Below, piece after piece: positions 1 to 39,301 of a stretch of 64,000 bases of DNA; positions within the stretch are counted from its first letter, which is position 1, and each line of letters opens with the position of its first letter. The notes under the pieces were generated by a model. That model did no database searches, had not been told where the DNA came from, and was given only the letters and a program-made list of their open reading frames with translations. The stretch covers positions 14,879-78,878 of the forward strand of contig JBBRXG010000003.1 in NCBI GenBank assembly GCA_038248655.1, read 5' to 3'. Source of the stretch: Gaiellales bacterium (GTDB taxonomy: Bacteria; Actinomycetota; Thermoleophilia; Gaiellales; Gaiellaceae). Made by a program: the position numbers and the translations under genes.

Positions 1-464
1 ATCGCGCAGTCCGAGCCGACCGTGAGCACGATCCGCGCGCCCACCTCGAGGTTCGCCCCGGTCGGGACGTTCAGGCCGCCCGGCGGCTTGCGGAGGTCGC
101 GGAGCTCGACGCCGTGCCGGCGGGCGAGCGCGACCAGCTCCGGGTCGTCGGTCACGTACTCGTGCAGCCCGTTCTCGAGGTCGAGGCCCGCCGTGATCGC
201 GCTCTTCAGGAGCTCGTGCCACGCAGGCGGGAACCGCCCACCCTGCGTCGCGACGCCGACCAGCGCGGTCGTCGGCTCGTAGGCGAGCGCCTCCTCGACC
301 GTTTCGACGATCGGGACTCCTCCGTGGCTCTCCCCTGCGCGCTCGGAGTCGAGGATCGCAACCGTCGGCGCGTCGCCGTATCGGAGCACGCCGCGCATCG
401 TCTTCCCGTAGTGCGGGTCGCCGCTCCGGCCCTCGGCGAGAATCAGGTACCGCTTTCGGTTCAC
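1..464 (-). CDS. DUF1611-family protein (DgcN-like), N-terminal part; the 3' end runs off the window
   Basis: My own minus-strand translation from GTG at 464 gives VNRKRYLILAEGRSGDPHYGKTMRGVLRYGDAPTVAILDSERAGESHGGVPIVETVEEAL..., open to position 1. The pattern matches DUF1611 N-termini as I recall them. It lies directly downstream of a dipeptide-epimerase-like gene. Confidence 0.55.
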   Translation of the reverse strand, partial: MNRKRYLILAEGRSGDPHYGKTMRGVLRYGDAPTVAILDSERAGESHGGVPIVETVEEALAYEPTTALVGVATQGGRFPPAWHELLKSAITAGLDLENGLHEYVTDDPELVALARRHGVELRDLRKPPGGLNVPTGANLEVGARIVLTVGSDCA

Positions 465-472
465 TTCAGTAT

Positions 473-596
473 CGGGGTCTGACCCCGTGACGAGACTGCA
501 ACTTCTGCACGAGGCAAGCGTTCATGCGGTTCGCGTGCCGCTCCGTGTGCCTTCTGTCACGCTTTCGCCACGCTCTCGTAACGGGGTCTGACCCCG
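473..596. repeat. 124-bp MITE/REP-like element bounded by imperfect 23-nt inverted repeats (CGGGGTCWGACCCCGTKACGAGA)
   Basis: The left end at 473-495 matches the reverse complement of 574-596 at 21/23 positions. The core palindrome GGGGTCTGACCCC sits at 474-486 and 583-595. Confidence 0.7.
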
Positions 597-1588
597 AGTC
601 CGGGCTCCACCGATGGGGTCTGCACGCCGTCGACGAGCTCGACGCCCGGCCACGGATCGTCGGCGAGCAGGAGGTTTCCGTCCAGGTCCACGTGGTCGCA
701 CAGGCTCGCGATCGCGGCACCGGCGGCGATCCCGAGCCCCGACTCGACCATGCACCCGAGCATCACGCCAAGGCCGAGGGCGCGGGCGGCGTGCGCCATC
801 CGTACGGCCTCGTGGATCCCGCCCGACTTCGCCAGCTTGATGTTGACGCCGTGCGCGATCCGGGCGCAGGCGGCGACGTCGTGGAGCGTGTGACAGTCCT
901 CGTCCACGTAGATCGGAAGCGGGGCCCGCTTCTTCAGCTCGTGACCCTCCGCGTCGCCCGCCGGCAGCGGCTGCTCACAGTACTCGACGCCGAGCTCGGC
1001 CAGCTGCGGCAACGCATCGAGCGCCTGGTCGAGCGTCCAGAACTCGTTCACGTCGACCTGCAAAGGAACACCGGTCACGCCACGGACGGCGCGGACCCGC
1101 TCGACGTCGAGCCCGTCGCCGCCGCCCAGCTTCAGCTTCAGCCGTTTGAACCGCCCGTCGGCCTCTACACGTTCGGCGCTGCGCGCCATCTCGTCCGGCC
1201 CGGCGAGGCCGATCGTCCGTGCCGTCGGCGGCCCGAGGCGCTCGAGCCCGAGCACGTGCCAGACCGGTTCGCCGAGCAGCTTCCCGCACAGGTCGTGCAG
1301 GGCGGCGTCGATCGCCGACCGGGCCGCGAACTGCTCGGCCGGCAGACGCCCGAGCACCTCTTCGAGCGCGAACGGATCGTCTCCGAGGTCGCCGGCGACG
1401 AGCTCCGCATACCCGAGCGCGGACTCGGCCGACTCGTCATACCGATCGATCGGCGCCCCCTCCCCGAACCCGGACACTCCCTCGTGGCGGATCTCGACCT
1501 CGACCACGTCGGCCCTGTCCTGCGAGCCCCGCGCGATCGTGAACGTCTCGGCCAGCTCGAGAGAGACGATCCGGGCCCTCAACTCCAC
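557..1588 (-). CDS. Dipeptide epimerase, enolase superfamily (L-Ala-D/L-Glu epimerase / DgcA-like)
   Basis: 343-aa ORF with MR/MLE-type motifs: KLKLGG, QVDVNE, CEQPL, YVDEDC, NIKLAKSGG. The last 12 codons and the stop lie inside the repeat element. Confidence 0.8.
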   Translation of the reverse strand: MELRARIVSLELAETFTIARGSQDRADVVEVEIRHEGVSGFGEGAPIDRYDESAESALGYAELVAGDLGDDPFALEEVLGRLPAEQFAARSAIDAALHDLCGKLLGEPVWHVLGLERLGPPTARTIGLAGPDEMARSAERVEADGRFKRLKLKLGGGDGLDVERVRAVRGVTGVPLQVDVNEFWTLDQALDALPQLAELGVEYCEQPLPAGDAEGHELKKRAPLPIYVDEDCHTLHDVAACARIAHGVNIKLAKSGGIHEAVRMAHAARALGLGVMLGCMVESGLGIAAGAAIASLCDHVDLDGNLLLADDPWPGVELVDGVQTPSVEPGLGVRPRYESVAKA

Positions 1589-33764: not shown

Positions 33765-35213
33765 TTACCCTCGGGTCGCGAGGAGGGTCCGTCCGGTCAT
33801 CTCCGCCGGCGCCTCGATGGCGAGCAGGTCGAGGACGGTCGGCGCGAGGTCTGCGAGCTCGCCGTCCGGGCGCAGGTCCCCGCCGGGCAGTGTGACGACG
33901 AGCGGTACCGGGTTCGTCGTGTGGGCCGTGTGCGGGCTGACGCCGTCGGCGGCGAGCATCTTCTCGGCGTTGCCGTGGTCGGCGGTGACGAGCGAGACGC
34001 CGTCTGCGAGTGCGACGGCGGCGAGCACATCTCCGAGGCAACGGTCGGTCGCCTCGACAGCCGCGATCGCAGCCGGGATCGAGCCCGAGTGGCCGACCAT
34101 GTCCGGATTTGCGAAGTTGACGATCCCGAAGCCGTAGTCACGGCCGATCTCGGCCGCGAAGCGGCGAGCGACCTCCGCCGCCGACATCTCGGGCCTCCGG
34201 TCATAGGTGCCGACGTCACGCGGCGAGGGAACGAGCACCCGCGTCTCCCCGGGCCACTCGTCCTCGCGACCACCGTTGAGGAAGTAGGTCACGTGGGCGT
34301 ACTTCTCCGTCTCGGCACAGTGGAGCTGGCGCACCCCCTGGCGGGCGAGCACCTCGGCGAGGGCGTCCGGCACCTGCTGCTCCTCGAAGACGACCGGACA
34401 GTCGAGCTCGTCGCTGTACCGGGTCATCGTCGTCAGATCGAGGCCGGCGCCGAGCAGGAGCTGCGACAGCTGGCGTGCCCGGTCGGGCCGGAAGTTGAAG
34501 AAGATCACCGCGTCCCCCGGCTCGATCCCGGGCCGACCCTCGAAGTGGACCGGCTCGAGGAACTCGTCGGTCACACCGGCGTCGTACTGCCGTTGCACGT
34601 ACGTGAAGGGGTCAGACCCCGTTACCGGAGTGCAACGGACGATCGCATCGTAGGCCCGTTCCGTCCGCTCCCGTCGCCCGTCGCGGTCCATTGCGTAGTA
34701 CCGGCCCGCGACGGAGGCGATCCGGTCAACCGGCAGCTCGGCGAGGTCGCCGAGCGCGGCGTGCGGCGAGACGTCGCGCCCGTCGGTGAAGGCGTGGATC
34801 CACGTCTTCTCGAGGGCGAACCGGAGCAGGGCGCGGAGGTGGTCGATATGCGAGTGGACGCCGCCGTGCGAGACGAGGCCGAGCAGGTGGACGCGGGCGC
34901 CGCGCTCGAACGCGTCCCGGAGCGCCGGGTTCTCGAAGAACGACCCGTCCTCGATCGCCTTGTTCACCCGCATCAGGTCCTGGTAGAGGATCCGCCCCGA
35001 GCCGATCGTCAGATGGCCGACCTCGGAGTTCCCCATCTGGCCCGGCGGCAGACCGACCGCGGCGCCCGATGCCTGAAGCGTCGTGTGCGGGTGCTCTGCC
35101 CAGAGCCGGTCGAAGACGGGGGTCTCGGCGAGATCGACCGCGTTGCCGGGACCCGGCGGGGCGAGCCCCCAGCCGTCCAGGACGACGAGGACGACGAGCG
35201 GGACCGGGTTCAG
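33765..35213 (-). CDS. gpmI: 2,3-bisphosphoglycerate-independent phosphoglycerate mutase; probable CTG start
   Basis: The ORF track starts at the Met of GQMGNSEVGH (35036). The in-frame upstream 59 codons encode the conserved N-terminus (NPVPLVVLVVLDGWGLAPPGPGNAVDLAETPVFDRLW). The only plausible start is the CTG at 35213, which overlaps the tpiA TGA. Confidence 0.85.
   Translation of the reverse strand: MNPVPLVVLVVLDGWGLAPPGPGNAVDLAETPVFDRLWAEHPHTTLQASGAAVGLPPGQMGNSEVGHLTIGSGRILYQDLMRVNKAIEDGSFFENPALRDAFERGARVHLLGLVSHGGVHSHIDHLRALLRFALEKTWIHAFTDGRDVSPHAALGDLAELPVDRIASVAGRYYAMDRDGRRERTERAYDAIVRCTPVTGSDPFTYVQRQYDAGVTDEFLEPVHFEGRPGIEPGDAVIFFNFRPDRARQLSQLLLGAGLDLTTMTRYSDELDCPVVFEEQQVPDALAEVLARQGVRQLHCAETEKYAHVTYFLNGGREDEWPGETRVLVPSPRDVGTYDRRPEMSAAEVARRFAAEIGRDYGFGIVNFANPDMVGHSGSIPAAIAAVEATDRCLGDVLAAVALADGVSLVTADHGNAEKMLAADGVSPHTAHTTNPVPLVVTLPGGDLRPDGELADLAPTVLDLLAIEAPAEMTGRTLLATRG
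34591..34639. repeat. 49-nt near-palindrome inside gpmI containing a copy of GGGGTCAGACCCCGTTAC
   Basis: CCGTTGCAC-N9-GGGGTCAGACCCC-N9-GTGCAACGG. The 18 nt at 34609-34626 are identical to the reverse complement of 578-595. Confidence 0.7.
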
Positions 35214-35920
35214 CCGGTCCCTCTCGGAGCAGACCCGACGATCGCCGCGAACGAGTCGACGTCGAGTGAGGCGCCTCCGACGAGCGCGCCGGAGACGTCC
35301 GGCAGGGCGAGCAGGTCAGCCGCGTTCTCCGGCTTGACCGAGCCGCCGTAGAGGATGGGCACGTCGAGCAGCGCCCGAATGAACGCATGCGCCTCCTGAA
35401 CCTGCTCGGGCGTCGCCGTTCTGCCTGTTCCGATCGCCCAGACCGGCTCGTAGGCGACGACGAGCTGCTCGTGCGCTTCGAGCACCGCCAGCTGGCGCCT
35501 GAGCACGTCCTCGGTCTTGCCGCGCCCGCGTTCCTCCTCCGTCTCGCCCACGCACGCGATCACCCAGAGGCCCGCCTCGAGCGCAGCGCTCGCCCGCCGG
35601 GCGACCCCGTCGTCGGTCTCCCCGAAGAGGAGGCGGCGCTCGGAGTGCCCGACGATCGTCCCGTACACGCCGAGCTCCTGGAGCATGGTGGCCGAGACCT
35701 CGCCGGTGAACGCCCCTTCCTGCTCCCAGTGGACGTTCTGGGCGGCGACCGCGATCTCGGTGCCGGCGAGCGCCTGGACCGCACCGGCGAGCGACGGAAA
35801 GGGCGGGCAGACGGCGACGTCCACTCCCTCGACGTCCGCCAGCCGCTCGCGAAGCGCCCCGCAGTACCAGGGCGTCTCCTGCGAGCCCTTGTACATCTTC
35901 CAGTTCCCCGCGATCAGCAC
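35210..35920 (-). CDS. tpiA: Triosephosphate isomerase
   Basis: 236 aa: MLIAGNWKM, VGHSERR, AYEPVWAIGTG. GTG start with an AGGA RBS. Confidence 0.9.
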   Translation of the reverse strand: MLIAGNWKMYKGSQETPWYCGALRERLADVEGVDVAVCPPFPSLAGAVQALAGTEIAVAAQNVHWEQEGAFTGEVSATMLQELGVYGTIVGHSERRLLFGETDDGVARRASAALEAGLWVIACVGETEEERGRGKTEDVLRRQLAVLEAHEQLVVAYEPVWAIGTGRTATPEQVQEAHAFIRALLDVPILYGGSVKPENAADLLALPDVSGALVGGASLDVDSFAAIVGSAPRGTG

Positions 35921-35944
35921 GGATCGATCCTAAAGGCCACGTCC

Positions 35945-36057
35945 GGGGTCAGACCCCTGCCATGTTCGGAGCGGCCACCGGTGGGCCAAACGTCCCTGCA
36001 AAGGCCGCTCATAGCATGTTGGATGCTCTGCAAGGGGGGTCAGACCCCTGCCGTGTC
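35945..36057. repeat. Pair of direct repeats GGGGTCAGACCCCTGCCRTGT flanking a 78-nt structured spacer (pgk-tpiA intergenic)
   Basis: Core palindromes lie at 35945-35957 and 36036-36048. The repeats match at 20/21 nt. The spacer holds additional hairpins (GGCCACCGGTGGGCC, AGCAT-N5-ATGCT). Confidence 0.7.
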
Positions 36058-37104
36058 CCGTCGCGCCGGGGGGATCGCCGACACGCCGGGCAGCTCCTTG
36101 CCCTCGAGCAGCTCGAGCGAGGCACCGCCGCCGGTCGAGACCCAGTCGATCTCGCCGGCGAGCCCGCTTTCCTCGAGCGCCCGCACCGAGTCGCCGCCGC
36201 CGACGACGCTGTACGCGGGGGCGGCGGCGATCGCACGCGCGATCGCGACCGTTCCCTCCGCGAAGCGCGGCCACTCGAAGACACCCATTGGCCCGTTCCA
36301 GAACACCGTCCGCGCCATCGCGATGCGCTTCGCGTAGCCCGCGCACGTCTCGGGCCCGATGTCCAGGCCGAGCCACCCATCCGGAACGTCCATGGCGGGA
36401 ACGACGATCGCCTCCGCATCGGCCTCGAACGCGGCCGCGGCGACGACATCTCTCGGCAGCTTCACCTCGACGTCGATCGGGTGCATCCGGATCTCCTCTG
36501 CCATCTTCCCGCCGACGAGGACGACGTCCGCGCGTTTCGCGAGGGTGCGCAACACGCCGATCTTGTCCTCCACCTTCGCCCCGCCGACGATCGCCACGAA
36601 CGGACGCCCCGGCTCCTCGAGCAGCTTGCCGAGCTCGATCAGCTCGCGCTCGAGCAGCAGTCCGGCGAAGGCCGGCAACAGGTGGGCGACGCCCTCCGTC
36701 GACGCGTGCGCGCGGTGAGCGGAGCCGAAGGCGTCATTCACGTAGACGTCCGCCAGCGAGGCGAGCTCCTCCGCGAGCTTCGGGTCGTTCGCCGTCTCCC
36801 CGGGGTCGAAACGTGTGTTCTCGAGCACCCGCACCCGGCCGTCCGCGTCGAGCAGATCGTGGAGCCGCTCAGCGACGGGCGCGATCGCGTAGGCGGGATC
36901 GGGCCCCTTCGGGCGCCCGAGGTGCGAGCAGACGATCACCTCCGCCGCCCCGCGCTCGAGCAGGAGCCGAATCGTCGGGAGCGCCGCCCGGACCCGGGAG
37001 TCGTCCGCGACCCGGCCGTCCTCGAGGGGGACGTTCAGGTCGGCGCGGACGAGCACGCGCCTGCCCGCGATGTCGGCGTTCCGAACCGAGCGGGGGAGCC
37101 TCAC
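36040..37104 (-). CDS. pgk: Phosphoglycerate kinase
   Basis: 354 aa: RADLNVPL, NDAFGSAHRAHAS, FWNGPMGVFE, STGGGASLELLEGK. The stop codon is the central TGA of the palindrome. Confidence 0.9.
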   Translation of the reverse strand: MRLPRSVRNADIAGRRVLVRADLNVPLEDGRVADDSRVRAALPTIRLLLERGAAEVIVCSHLGRPKGPDPAYAIAPVAERLHDLLDADGRVRVLENTRFDPGETANDPKLAEELASLADVYVNDAFGSAHRAHASTEGVAHLLPAFAGLLLERELIELGKLLEEPGRPFVAIVGGAKVEDKIGVLRTLAKRADVVLVGGKMAEEIRMHPIDVEVKLPRDVVAAAAFEADAEAIVVPAMDVPDGWLGLDIGPETCAGYAKRIAMARTVFWNGPMGVFEWPRFAEGTVAIARAIAAAPAYSVVGGGDSVRALEESGLAGEIDWVSTGGGASLELLEGKELPGVSAIPPARRDTAGV

Positions 37105-37105
37105 C

Positions 37106-38140
37106 TCAGGCGCTGGCGGCAGCGGCCCCGACCGGCAGCGTCTTCCCGATCATCGCGATCAGGTCGACGATCCGGCAGCTGTAGCCCCACTCGTTGTCGT
37201 ACCAGCCGAAGACCTTTGCCATCGTCCCGTTCGCCATCGTCAATTCGCTGTCGAAGATGCACGAGTACGGGGAGCGCTCGATGTCGGAAGAGACGAGCGG
37301 CGCGTCCGTGAACTGGAGGTAGCGGCCGAGCGGTCCGCCGGCCGCCTTCCGGTAGGCGTCGATCACCTCGTCTCGCGTGACCTCGCGGCCGAGCCTGACG
37401 ACGAGATCGGTGATCGATCCCGTCGGTACGGGGGCGCGGACGGAGACCCCGTCTACCTTCCCGTTCAAGCCCGGCAGGACGAGCCCGATCGCCTTCGCCG
37501 CCCCGGTCGAGGTCGGAATCAGGTTGATCGCCGCAGCGCGTGCCCTGCGCAGATCCTTGTGCGGGAGGTCGAGGATGCTCTGGTCGTTCGTGTACGCATG
37601 GATCGTGGTCATGAATCCCTGCTCGACGACGAAGGCGTCGTTCAGCACCTTCGCGAGCGGCGCGACGCAGTTCGTCGTGCAGGAGGCGTTCGAGACCACG
37701 TGGTGGGACGCCGGGTCGTAGGCGTCGTCGTTGACGCCGAGGACGAGCGTGACGTCGGGCTCGGTCGCCGGCGCGGAGATCACCACCTTCTTAGCGCCCG
37801 CGTCGAGGTGCTTCTGCGCGTCCTCGCGCTTCGTGAAGAAGCCCGTGGACTCGAGCACGACGTCGACGCCCAGCTCGCCCCACGGCAGCGCGGCGGGGTC
37901 GCGCTCGGCGAGCATCCTGATCTCGCTGCCGGCGGCGACGATCGCTCCGTCGCGCTCCTCGACCTCGTGCCCGAGCGGGCCGAGCACCGAGTCGTACTCG
38001 AGCAGGTGCGCCATCGTGTGCGCGTCGCCGAGATCGTTCGCGGCGACGATCTCGAAGTCGCCGCCGCGCTCCAGCTGGGCACGGAAGAAGTTGCGCCCGA
38101 TGCGCCCGAACCCGTTGATGCCTACGCGAACCTTGGCCAT
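37106..38140 (-). CDS. gap: Glyceraldehyde-3-phosphate dehydrogenase, type I
   Basis: 344 aa: [39 protein letters not shown]. Confidence 0.9.
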
Positions 38141-38365
38141 GTCGTCGCCCCCCAGTCGTTGTCCGCTGCGAGTCTAACCGGGCATCTGCAGACGGAAATC
38201 CGTAGTCGGCCGAAGACCGAGCGCGGGCCGGAGGGGAAGCTCCGAGGACGACCTCCCCCTCCGGTCATGCCGCGCTCAGGACCGAGCCGGCAGACGGGGT
38301 CTGAATCCGCCGGCGGACGAGCGCGGACCCGCGGGGGAGAGTATGGAGCATCGGACCCCGTAACG

Positions 38366-39301
38366 CTACAGCCGGGGCGACGCGAGTCCGGCGAGCGAGA
38401 CGAGCCGCCCGAGGCGCCGATGCGCCGTCGCCTTCGTCGCCGGAGGCCTGCACTTCGCGCCGAGCTCGCGTGCCGACGACGACGGGTTCCGGAGCCTGAG
38501 CTCTGCGACCTCGCGGAGCGACGGGGAGAGCCGCTCCAACCCTCCCGCCTCCTCGAGGCTGCGGATCGCCTGCACCTGGAGGTGTGCAGCCCGGCTCATC
38601 CGGACGAGGTTTGCGTGGTCGGCGTTCGCGAGCCGATTGGCGTGGGCACGCGCATCGCCGACCACCGCGTGCTCGTCGATCGCAAGGGCGCTGTCTCCGG
38701 AACCGGCGAGCGCGAGCGCGTCGGCGACCGCGTCGGCGCCCTTCGCATAGGCGATCGCGTGACGCCCGCGGTCGTGGACACGTAGCGGCACGTCCTCGCG
38801 CTCTGCGACCCACGCGACGAGCGCGGCGCCGGCCCTCGTCGAGCTGCGGATCTCCAGGTGCAGCGCGCGCGGGCCGCTGACCGAGCCGCCGCCCAGGAAC
38901 GCGCCGCGCAGATACGCACGCCGGCAGCACGAGCGCCCGATTACCCGCTTCGGGGGCACCTCGAGCGGCGCGTGGCCGGCCGAGAGCACTCCGGCCCGGC
39001 GCAGCACCCCGAGCACACCCGCCGTCCCGGGCACGTGCAGCTGGTAGCGGGTGCCGCCCTCGAACGCACGCCGACGGTACGTTCGGATCTCGGTCTCGAC
39101 ACCGAAGTCGCGGAGGAGGCCGAACCCGCGCCGGGCGACGGCGGACTCGGCGAGATCGAGGTGGACGGAAAACTCACCGTGGCCGCGCAGATGGAGGCTG
39201 CCGGCGGTGTGGAAGAGACCCGAGAGCTCCGCCAGGCGGTCGCAGTCGCGCGTCGGCTCGATCGCCGCGAGCTCGCGGCGGACGTCCTCAGAGAGCGACA
39301 C
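38366..39301 (-). CDS. whiA: DNA-binding sporulation/cell-division regulator WhiA
   Basis: 311 aa with a LAGLIDADG-like N-domain (ELSGLFHTAGSLHL) and a C-terminal HTH (SLREVAELRLRNPSSSARELG). Confidence 0.9.
   Translation of the reverse strand: MSLSEDVRRELAAIEPTRDCDRLAELSGLFHTAGSLHLRGHGEFSVHLDLAESAVARRGFGLLRDFGVETEIRTYRRRAFEGGTRYQLHVPGTAGVLGVLRRAGVLSAGHAPLEVPPKRVIGRSCCRRAYLRGAFLGGGSVSGPRALHLEIRSSTRAGAALVAWVAEREDVPLRVHDRGRHAIAYAKGADAVADALALAGSGDSALAIDEHAVVGDARAHANRLANADHANLVRMSRAAHLQVQAIRSLEEAGGLERLSPSLREVAELRLRNPSSSARELGAKCRPPATKATAHRRLGRLVSLAGLASPRL

Follow-up and report, generated by a model that had tools for sequence, protein, structure and literature searches.

Why do two near-identical palindromes separate pgk from tpiA, with the pgk stop codon inside one of them, and did they arise for this glycolytic operon or do they belong to something more widespread? 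The window, by which we mean the whole 64,000-nt stretch of high-G+C DNA that was analysed, carries whiA, gap, pgk, tpiA and gpmI in this order on the minus strand. The two 21-nt repeats, GGGGTCAGACCCCTGCCATGT at 35945-35965 and GGGGTCAGACCCCTGCCGTGT at 36036-36056, are identical at 20 of 21 positions and lie 91 nt apart, start to start. Both are built on the 13-nt palindrome GGGGTC(A/T)GACCCC, a perfect 6+1+6 core, and 78 nt separate the two cores. The coordinates, the degree of identity and the length of the spacer given in the initial annotation were all confirmed, as was its assignment of the pgk TGA to the centre of the upstream (second) palindrome. The same 1-kb stretch was recovered, identical, in a sediment and a soil metagenome that had been assembled independently, and no RNA run containing it was found; an exact-product look-up returned no record identical to the PGK or GAPDH of the window. 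The features of the region are the following.

38366-39301, minus strand: whiA
37106-38140, minus strand: gap
36040-37104, minus strand: pgk, open reading frame with the Pfam domain PGK
36043-36063, minus strand: seven extra PGK codons (RRDTAGV), from the 5' arm of the repeat and the first half of its core
36040-36042, minus strand: pgk stop codon TGA, at the centre of the upstream core
36024-36060, minus strand: upstream repeat copy (B2), 5' arm GGGACACGGCA and core GGGGTCTGACCCC (36036-36048); covariance model 31.4 bits, E 1.3e-05
35958-36035, minus strand: 78-nt spacer between the cores, locus-specific and not a dispersed repeat
36006-36033, minus strand: conserved first part of the spacer, TTGCAGA-N13-TGCTATGAGCG, found in four orthologous doublets
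35933-35969, minus strand: downstream repeat copy (B1), complete, with 5' arm GAACATGGCA, core 35945-35957 and 3' arm GGACGTGGCC
35918-35931, minus strand: tpiA ribosome binding site AGGA (35928-35931) and GTG start (35918-35920), directly 3' of the repeat
35210-35920, minus strand: tpiA, GTG start, Pfam domain TIM

On the mRNA strand, the junction reads ...CCG GCG CGA CGG GAC ACG GCA GGG GTC TGA CCCC - 78-nt spacer - GGGGTCTGACCCC GGACGTGGCC TTT AGGA TCGATCC GTG, and only 3 nt lie between the end of the downstream palindrome and the tpiA ribosome binding site. B2 has no matching 3' arm, and its 5' arm and half of its core are translated as the end of pgk. Because B1 extends to 35969 and B2 begins at 36024, the spacer overlaps the arms of the repeats. 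With at most one mismatch, the 13-mer was found at five sites of the window (10 matches over both strands), where 0.19 matches were expected and none of 100 shuffles gave more than 2; for the 17-mer, 4 matches in the window compare with 0.43 expected.

The consequence for the protein was examined in 120 PGK relatives of 80-87% identity. Most of them are about 347 residues long and end in ...LPGV(A/S/T/V)AIP(P/A/S)A* or a close variant, the usual tail being AIPPA*. Extensions of seven residues were seen in only five cases, RRDTAGV in the window, RTDMSGV in P0019, ETDMTGA in P0022, EGDTSGA in P0028 and ETDVSRV in P0092, and all five are the translation of a repeat arm followed by GGGGTC-TGA. The initial annotation had treated everything that follows LPGV as a non-conserved tail. 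This is correct for the seven extra residues RRDTAGV, whereas the AIPPA part is conserved in the relatives.

The remaining copies in the window show that the palindrome is not confined to the glycolytic genes. A second pair of cores, at 474-486 and 583-595 and 109 nt apart, occupies an intercistronic junction of the minus strand, and a single exact core was found inside gpmI.

473-487: second doublet, copy nearest to the downstream gene, CGGGGTCTGACCCCG, 8 nt before the GTG (463-465, minus strand) of an open reading frame that runs off the start of the window
582-596: second doublet, copy in the 3' end of an MR_MLE-family open reading frame (557-1588, minus strand), translated there as GVRP
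34608-34620: exact core within the gpmI coding sequence (TGSDP), where relatives have AGGGACAGACCCC (TGTDP) in the same codons

Four of the five window sites lie at intercistronic junctions, and the inner flanks of the 582-596 and 473-487 copies are complementary to each other (GTGACGAGA / TCTCGTAAC). A covariance model of the repeat subfamily described below returned the same five window sites and nothing else convincing, and this search of the window revealed no decayed copies beyond them. In the MR_MLE-family protein, the GGGGTC half of the core at 583-595 falls on the G-V codons that close the conserved ...PGLGV end (Pfam MR_MLE_C). The tail that follows, RPRYESVAKA*, probably derives from the repeat or the spacer; if so, the same core family would have rewritten a second gene end. 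The gpmI core, judged from the relatives, is probably not an inserted element. It became perfect through three substitutions relative to them, by chance or by ectopic conversion from the other copies.

Outside the window, a scan for two cores 75-105 nt apart located at least 120 loci in metagenome contigs, mostly from soil and of about 70% G+C. Among the matches listed, 382 cores were counted in 644 kb, and they occurred as pairs, clusters and tandem arrays. The initial annotation had let its reading depend on the presence of the motif in other intergenic regions, and the core is indeed found there, both as the 474/583 pair and in many related and unrelated contigs. At the loci listed by the paired-core scan, 33 of 283 cores (12%) lie inside predicted coding sequence, which makes up 76% of the bases, and 14 of these 33 are no more than 30 nt away from the end of an open reading frame. 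By its PGK, the window genome, a Gaiellales-like actinobacterium from soil or sediment, falls near Gaiellaceae and Gaiellales MAGs. The core was absent from the PGK-related loci of these GTDB representatives (PGK identity 66-72%), and none was present within 11-21 kb in the closest relatives, L202, L206 and L207.

The arms that flank the core differ between lineages and contigs but tend to be mutually complementary, above shuffle expectation at arm positions 1-11 in 285 copies. Since the arms are lineage-specific there is no single extended consensus, and a subfamily of 30 copies was analysed instead, which have the extended form CGGaCAcGGCc-core-gGaCgTGGCC in common and include both pgk-tpiA copies. 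B1 matches this consensus with 50 bits (E 2.2e-10) in the covariance model. Within the subfamily, 80% of the cells in the arms are paired, compared to 28-45% when the 3' partner is slid, and four arm positions switch between AU and CG or between UA and GC. The covariation analysis proposed in the initial annotation gave a score of 0.097 for these 30 copies versus 0.069 in shuffles, a value reached by 6 of 500 shuffles. The arm type of the window genome is GGACAYGGCM / KGNCRTGKCC. From the subfamily alignment it follows that the direct repeat of 20/21 identity corresponds to two copies of the arm-plus-core consensus of the family.

The repeat is a short imperfect palindrome able to form a stem-loop, with a perfect 13-nt core and arms of about 10 nt, and it is mainly extragenic, which are both properties of REP sequences. 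The tetranucleotide tags GTAG and CGTC are absent from the subfamily consensus and from the window copies. These tags define two REP super-families and are typical of many described REPs (PMC3733652); they do not define REPs as a whole. The core sequence is not contained in that survey of GTAG/CGTC REPs (PMC3733652), and literature matches to the 13-mer or 11-mer were unrelated primers and viral sequences only. REPs are a known kind of bacterial repeat, and we found no published description of the GGGGTC(T/A)GACCCC family.

These data bear on an alternative in which local duplication or chance produced the pair without relation to any family, or else the pair is a miniature element (MITE) derived from a DDE transposon. 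Direct repeats of 21 nt around some 70 nt do resemble a long target duplication; yet the repeated part is the consensus arm and core of a family present at many loci, terminal inverted repeats with a short target duplication are lacking, and the transposases found nearby on other contigs are of the Y1/RAYT type. Chance is excluded by the shuffles. Taken together, we consider an origin of this kind very improbable.

Several further occurrences of the core deserve mention. The identical 13 nt were found in contigs with a G+C content of 26-44%, where the arms are AT-rich and lineage-specific (L163 12367-13543, L171 74-626, and L088, L108, L172 and L177). On the basis of the sequences, its presence in both low- and high-G+C contigs could reflect common descent from an old lineage, or convergence on a few GC-rich palindromes. 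In L208 (18444-18511), the interval between glpX and fba holds a variant pair, GGTGTCTGACACC and GGTGTCAGACACC, with both sides of the stem changed in a compensating manner relative to the usual core. Four cores within 125 nt (TTTTGGGGTCTGACCCCG units) were seen in L081 (1364-1487), a contig filed as a giant-virus MAG in IMG/VR. Single exact cores are intergenic in two Bacillaceae genomes (L039 5589 and L061 15080), among 1.4 Mb fetched for PGK only, where by a rough estimate about 0.04 would be expected by chance.

A transposase is associated with the repeat. On contig L126, an open reading frame of 196 residues (2099-2689) has three cores with central T on its left and five with central A on its right. 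Its product matches Pfam Y1_Tnp above the cut-off (E 3e-6). In NCBIfam, the model 'REP-associated tyrosine transposase' scored best, with E 9e-19 and 68 bits, which is short of the 80-bit equivalog cut-off. Homologues adjoin cores on one side in L092, L163 and L171, the RAYTs of L163 and L171 being only 26-29% identical to the high-GC one. All four contigs had been chosen because they contain cores, and an independent test therefore requires contigs that are picked by protein similarity alone. A search of the protein database with the L126 protein gave 357 homologues, many of them named RayT or REP-associated transposase by JGI; two contigs picked from protein similarity, L209 (57% identical to the L126 protein) and L210 (69%), both have a core on each side of the gene. 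This brings the RAYT genes with flanking cores to six contigs, with cores on both sides in L126, L209 and L210. The REP-transposase model gives the RAYT homologues far higher scores than the IS200 model does. A RAYT gene flanked by copies of the repeat is the signature of REP/RAYT systems (PMC3116915, PMC3337134), and here a Y1/HUH gene flanked by the same repeat was found on these other contigs. No RAYT gene is present within the 64-kb window, and for the window genome the transposase link thus rests on the other contigs. On L126 (2650-3005), the repeat arrays are also translated into the ends of called proteins, the RAYT itself ending in ...GSDPFGVRPRP and the neighbouring aconitase in ...GSDPSSSPPAGV. 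For annotation, this means that odd C-terminal tails in these taxa (...DTAGV, ...GSDP, ...GVRP) are an artefact of repeat read-through.

We therefore attribute the pgk-tpiA palindromes, with good confidence, to a REP family with an invariant GGGGTC(T/A)GACCCC core and lineage-specific, self-pairing arms, arranged here in a REPIN-like manner. They are not a locus-specific riboregulator; a dispersed repeat linked to RAYT genes is not an element that arose for the glycolytic operon. The distribution also speaks to the idea that a dimeric DNA-binding regulator of the glycolytic operon uses the palindromes as operators. Two copies of a perfect 6+1+6 palindrome do match the geometry of many operators, but the sites lie inside the operon at the 3' end of a gene and not at a promoter, the core is also found beside unrelated genes (the MR_MLE enzyme, an alpha-hydroxy-acid-oxidase-like gene in L195, the aconitase), and it occurs in tandem arrays with a period of 23-55 nt and around RAYT genes. 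A role as operator is accordingly a most unlikely one.

How the REP copies reached this junction was approached by comparing the DNA of eight related pgk-tpiA junctions. In L202, whose PGK is 87% identical, the junction is free of REPs and reads ...CCGGGC TAGGATC ACGCACGCT GTG, with a 13-nt spacer and the stop codon TAG overlapping the tpiA ribosome binding site. L207 is likewise REP-free with a 13-nt spacer. L206 retains only a remnant of a 3' arm (CCTGACGTGACC), and L204 has a single long palindrome directly before TAGGATC. L203, L205 and L208 have doublets like that of the window with spacers homologous to it; the cores of L205 are decaying, and in L208 a stop codon of its own lies 21 nt upstream of the core. 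Comparison of the junctions of L202, L204, L203, L205 and L208 identifies the TAGGATC at the start of tpiA in the window as the old pgk stop codon and the tpiA ribosome binding site, as in the REP-free L202. In the window group, an insertion directly 5' of the old stop codon explains both the read-through of pgk and the intact ribosome binding site. The initial annotation had expected spacers of a few to some tens of nucleotides in related genomes. This is what L202 and L207 have, with 13 nt, but the long doublet junction is not peculiar to the window and recurs in L203, L205 and L208. A separate doublet was seen in L099 (390-602; PGK 75% identical), 3 nt after a normal TAA stop codon, with an unrelated spacer, the opposite central base and a gap of about 210 nt. 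As this doublet is independent, the pgk-tpiA junction has been colonised at least twice.

The four orthologous doublets (window, L203, L205 and L208) have long been retained. Between these genomes the four-fold sites of pgk are 0.47-0.63 identical, that is near saturation, and 100 of 104 core positions are kept across the four. The first ~30 nt of the spacer are also conserved, with invariant TGCA.A and TGCTA.G blocks. Spacer copies were found nowhere else in the window or in about 200 loci, the only homologous sequences being the pgk-tpiA spacers of L203, L205 and L208; no promoter, terminator, open reading frame or Rfam family was found that would account for the conserved segment at 36006-36033. 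Within each doublet both copies have the same 5' arm, giving a direct repeat of 21-24 nt including the core (window 35945-36056, L203 3863-3990, L205 1250-1375, L208 9655-9770), yet this arm differs between the four genomes despite the homologous spacer (GGACAYGGCA, GGACATGTCA, GGAYATGRCA and GATTGTTAA). Arms that are alike within a genome and different between genomes suggest, from the alignments, concerted evolution or overwriting in place.

In a neighbour-joining tree of PGK, the REP carriers are scattered and form no clade. A history with a single insertion is then compatible with the tree only if the element was repeatedly and seamlessly lost, if lineages recombined, or if the tree is weak. 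The tree was set aside for dating the insertion, as with scattered carriers it is either uninformative or reflects repeated loss. Both metagenomes (X1 and X2) contain a contig of about 945 nt, with a depth similar to that of the window contig, which starts exactly at a further copy of this REP (window 35926-35976) and then continues into other sequence; REP repeats break short-read assemblies. Among the contigs of the two metagenome DNA runs, no clean excision joint was found. A mobile doublet with a conserved spacer was considered and set aside, as no copies of the spacer were found elsewhere in the 64-kb window or in the roughly 200 loci compared. The two window doublets have neither arms nor spacer in common, and among 101 doublets, spacers are common only to a few pairs of putatively orthologous contigs. 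Nothing in these comparisons identifies the doublet, rather than the single REP, as the mobile unit.

The structures predicted for the repeats depend on whether the copies fold singly or together. Single REP hairpins have energies of -10 to -13 kcal/mol and z-scores of -1.35 to +0.08, no better than shuffles. The 161-nt pgk-tpiA region has a z-score of -1.96, and a 161-nt stretch around the 474/583 doublet forms one long hairpin with a z-score of -5.09. For the four orthologous doublets, RNAalifold predicted pairing of the upstream 5' arm and core with the downstream core and 3' arm, a helix of about 20 bp around the spacer. This long-range helix contains one compensatory C-G/U-A switch, and the same pairing is seen in the minimum-free-energy fold of the window. 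As B2 consists of a 5' arm and core only and B1 has both arms, the mRNA or single-stranded DNA could form either two short local hairpins or the ~20-bp long-range helix. The ends of both window doublets, at pgk-tpiA and at 474/583, are complementary and close into one long hairpin in the predicted folds, as in REPINs. The two spacer hairpins of the initial annotation (GGCCCACCGGTGGCC; AGCAT..ATGCT) are present in the sequence but are not kept in the orthologous doublets L203, L205 and L208.

It could also be asked whether the copies are intrinsic terminators or delimit a small RNA gene, a function that the initial annotation had put forward. After the upstream core, L203, L205 and L208 have TTTT(T), and one terminator-like site was called in L203. 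Against this, the T-run is degraded in the window to CCTT (CCUUGC in RNA), where the U-tract that would follow the G+C-rich hairpin of a Rho-independent terminator is lacking; no terminator-like or promoter-like site was called in 35000-38400, none was called in L208, and the count in L203 is as in shuffles. A terminator after the upstream core was dropped as a candidate on these grounds. A candidate internal promoter, TTGCAG-14 nt-TATGAG with a TG ahead of the second hexamer, found no support either: it failed the scan for sigma-70-type sites, is poorly spaced and lacks the final T. A small open reading frame in the spacer (32 residues, ending on the tpiA start) is kept in L203 and not in L205 or L208, as read from the alignment. 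At the gathering score, Rfam matches in the whole window are tRNAs only, and a local search with E up to 10 gave ar7 as the best match, with 19.3 bits compared to a gathering score of 60. With no Rfam family, no promoter, and neither the candidate small open reading frame nor the spacer hairpins conserved, the small-RNA locus found no support, and we regard terminators or small-RNA boundaries as highly unlikely.

A repeat family with an extragenic bias and a RAYT association, gene ends that are read through, an orthologous series of junctions and long retention of the doublet are the observations from which a course of events can be proposed. By analogy with IS200/IS605 and with E. coli TnpA-REP, REPs would be cut and joined as single-stranded DNA hairpins by the RAYT (Y1/HUH) without target duplication. 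A REP doublet would have entered the gap-pgk-tpiA-gpmI operon directly 5' of the stop codon that pgk originally had, the TAG in TAGGATC, a sequence that is also the tpiA ribosome binding site. Translation of pgk would since then run through seven codons of the REP arm and end at the TGA in the centre of the core. Most likely the insertion was tolerated and may be mildly useful. In the polycistronic mRNA, the structure could impede 3' exonucleases or serve as a double-stranded processing site, as the biology of E. coli REPs would suggest; with the stop codon in a structured region, pgk translation would terminate more slowly, and the levels of gap-pgk and tpiA-gpmI could then differ. By this analogy, protection of mRNA 3' ends, processing or attenuation by the doublet, functions which the initial annotation had raised, is plausible.

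A stronger version holds that the doublet is a co-opted and selected intercistronic module built from REPs, be it a site of processing by RNase III or RNase E, or an insulator between gap-pgk and tpiA-gpmI that uncouples the two. This extends the REP explanation and does not exclude it. In its favour, four lineages keep the doublet and its cores despite saturated four-fold sites in pgk, the first ~30 nt of the spacer are conserved, the predicted ~20-bp long-range helix contains a compensatory C-G/U-A switch, and the L099 lineage gained an independent doublet at the same junction. On the other hand, most relatives do without it (the spacers of L202 and L207 have 13 nt, and most of the 120 PGK tails are normal), the cores of L205 are decaying, and retention of the cores could stem from gene conversion or overwriting by other REP copies, a process suggested by the within-genome identity of the two arms. 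On balance, we hold selection for such a module to be possible, though doubtful. We would put forward only as a speculation, and a rather unlikely one, the comprehensive picture in which selection has maintained the doublet, an old insertion, across several Gaiellales-like lineages as a processing or insulating module, consisting of the ~20-bp helix and the conserved 30-nt spacer segment, with copies kept identical in each genome by conversion or RAYT-mediated overwriting, and in which, more broadly, one 13-nt core is common to RAYT systems from 26% to 78% G+C.

In summary, the palindromes between pgk and tpiA are most probably REPs. To our knowledge, REP/RAYT systems have been studied almost only in Proteobacteria, and with the present family, uncultured soil Thermoleophilia (Gaiellales-like) now provide a clear case. 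By rewriting a gene end, the repeat has given a core glycolytic enzyme a new stop codon and a 7-residue tail. One junction can be traced through empty, remnant, single and double states and is as such a natural experiment on the arrival, persistence and loss of a repeat; the same series provides a simple set of constructs for testing whether REP doublets tune expression within operons. The main interest lies in this clean evolutionary series at one junction, and we consider it to be moderate.

Finally, the family can be compared to known systems. REP hairpins of E. coli protect upstream mRNA from 3' exonucleases and affect translation near the stop codon; Higgins et al. 1988 is among the works cited in PMC3337134. 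The E. coli REP/BIME sequences with their RAYT (TnpA-REP, YafM) resemble the present repeats in being short imperfect palindromes that lie mainly outside genes, often at gene 3' ends or intercistronic junctions, in occurring as pairs or clusters, and in having a Y1/HUH transposase gene that is flanked by copies. They differ in that the window family belongs to another phylum, has another sequence and shows no GTAG head, and in that the window element overlaps a coding end and supplies the stop codon. The core of the window family is, moreover, a near-perfect 13-nt palindrome, so that only the central base and the arms distinguish direct from inverted orientation.

The REPIN-RAYT system of Pseudomonas fluorescens SBW25 (Bertels and Rainey; PMC3116915, PMC3337134) has doublets some 100 nt long that fold into a long hairpin through pairing of their ends, RAYT genes flanked by repeats, and copies that persist for a long time in lineages, all as described here. 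For REPINs, a scheme 'a-palindrome ... palindrome-a(complement)' and long palindromic singlets arising from excision of the centre of a doublet have been described (PMC3337134), and the single long palindrome of L204 can be explained by excision of the centre in the same way when compared with L203 or the window. In SBW25, however, the whole doublet including the spacer is the unit replicated at many loci, whereas the two window doublets have unrelated spacers, and recurrence of a spacer is limited to a few pairs of contigs that look orthologous; the cognate RAYT of the window genome was not seen within 64 kb. Unlike the ends of IS200/IS605, the repeats of the window family are not the ends of a transposase-bearing insertion sequence at each site. 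With these elements and their palindrome-associated miniature derivatives they have in common a Y1 transposase that recognises subterminal DNA hairpins, and seamless insertion and excision of the IS200/IS605 type, without target duplication, would explain why REP-free junctions such as that of L202 look untouched.
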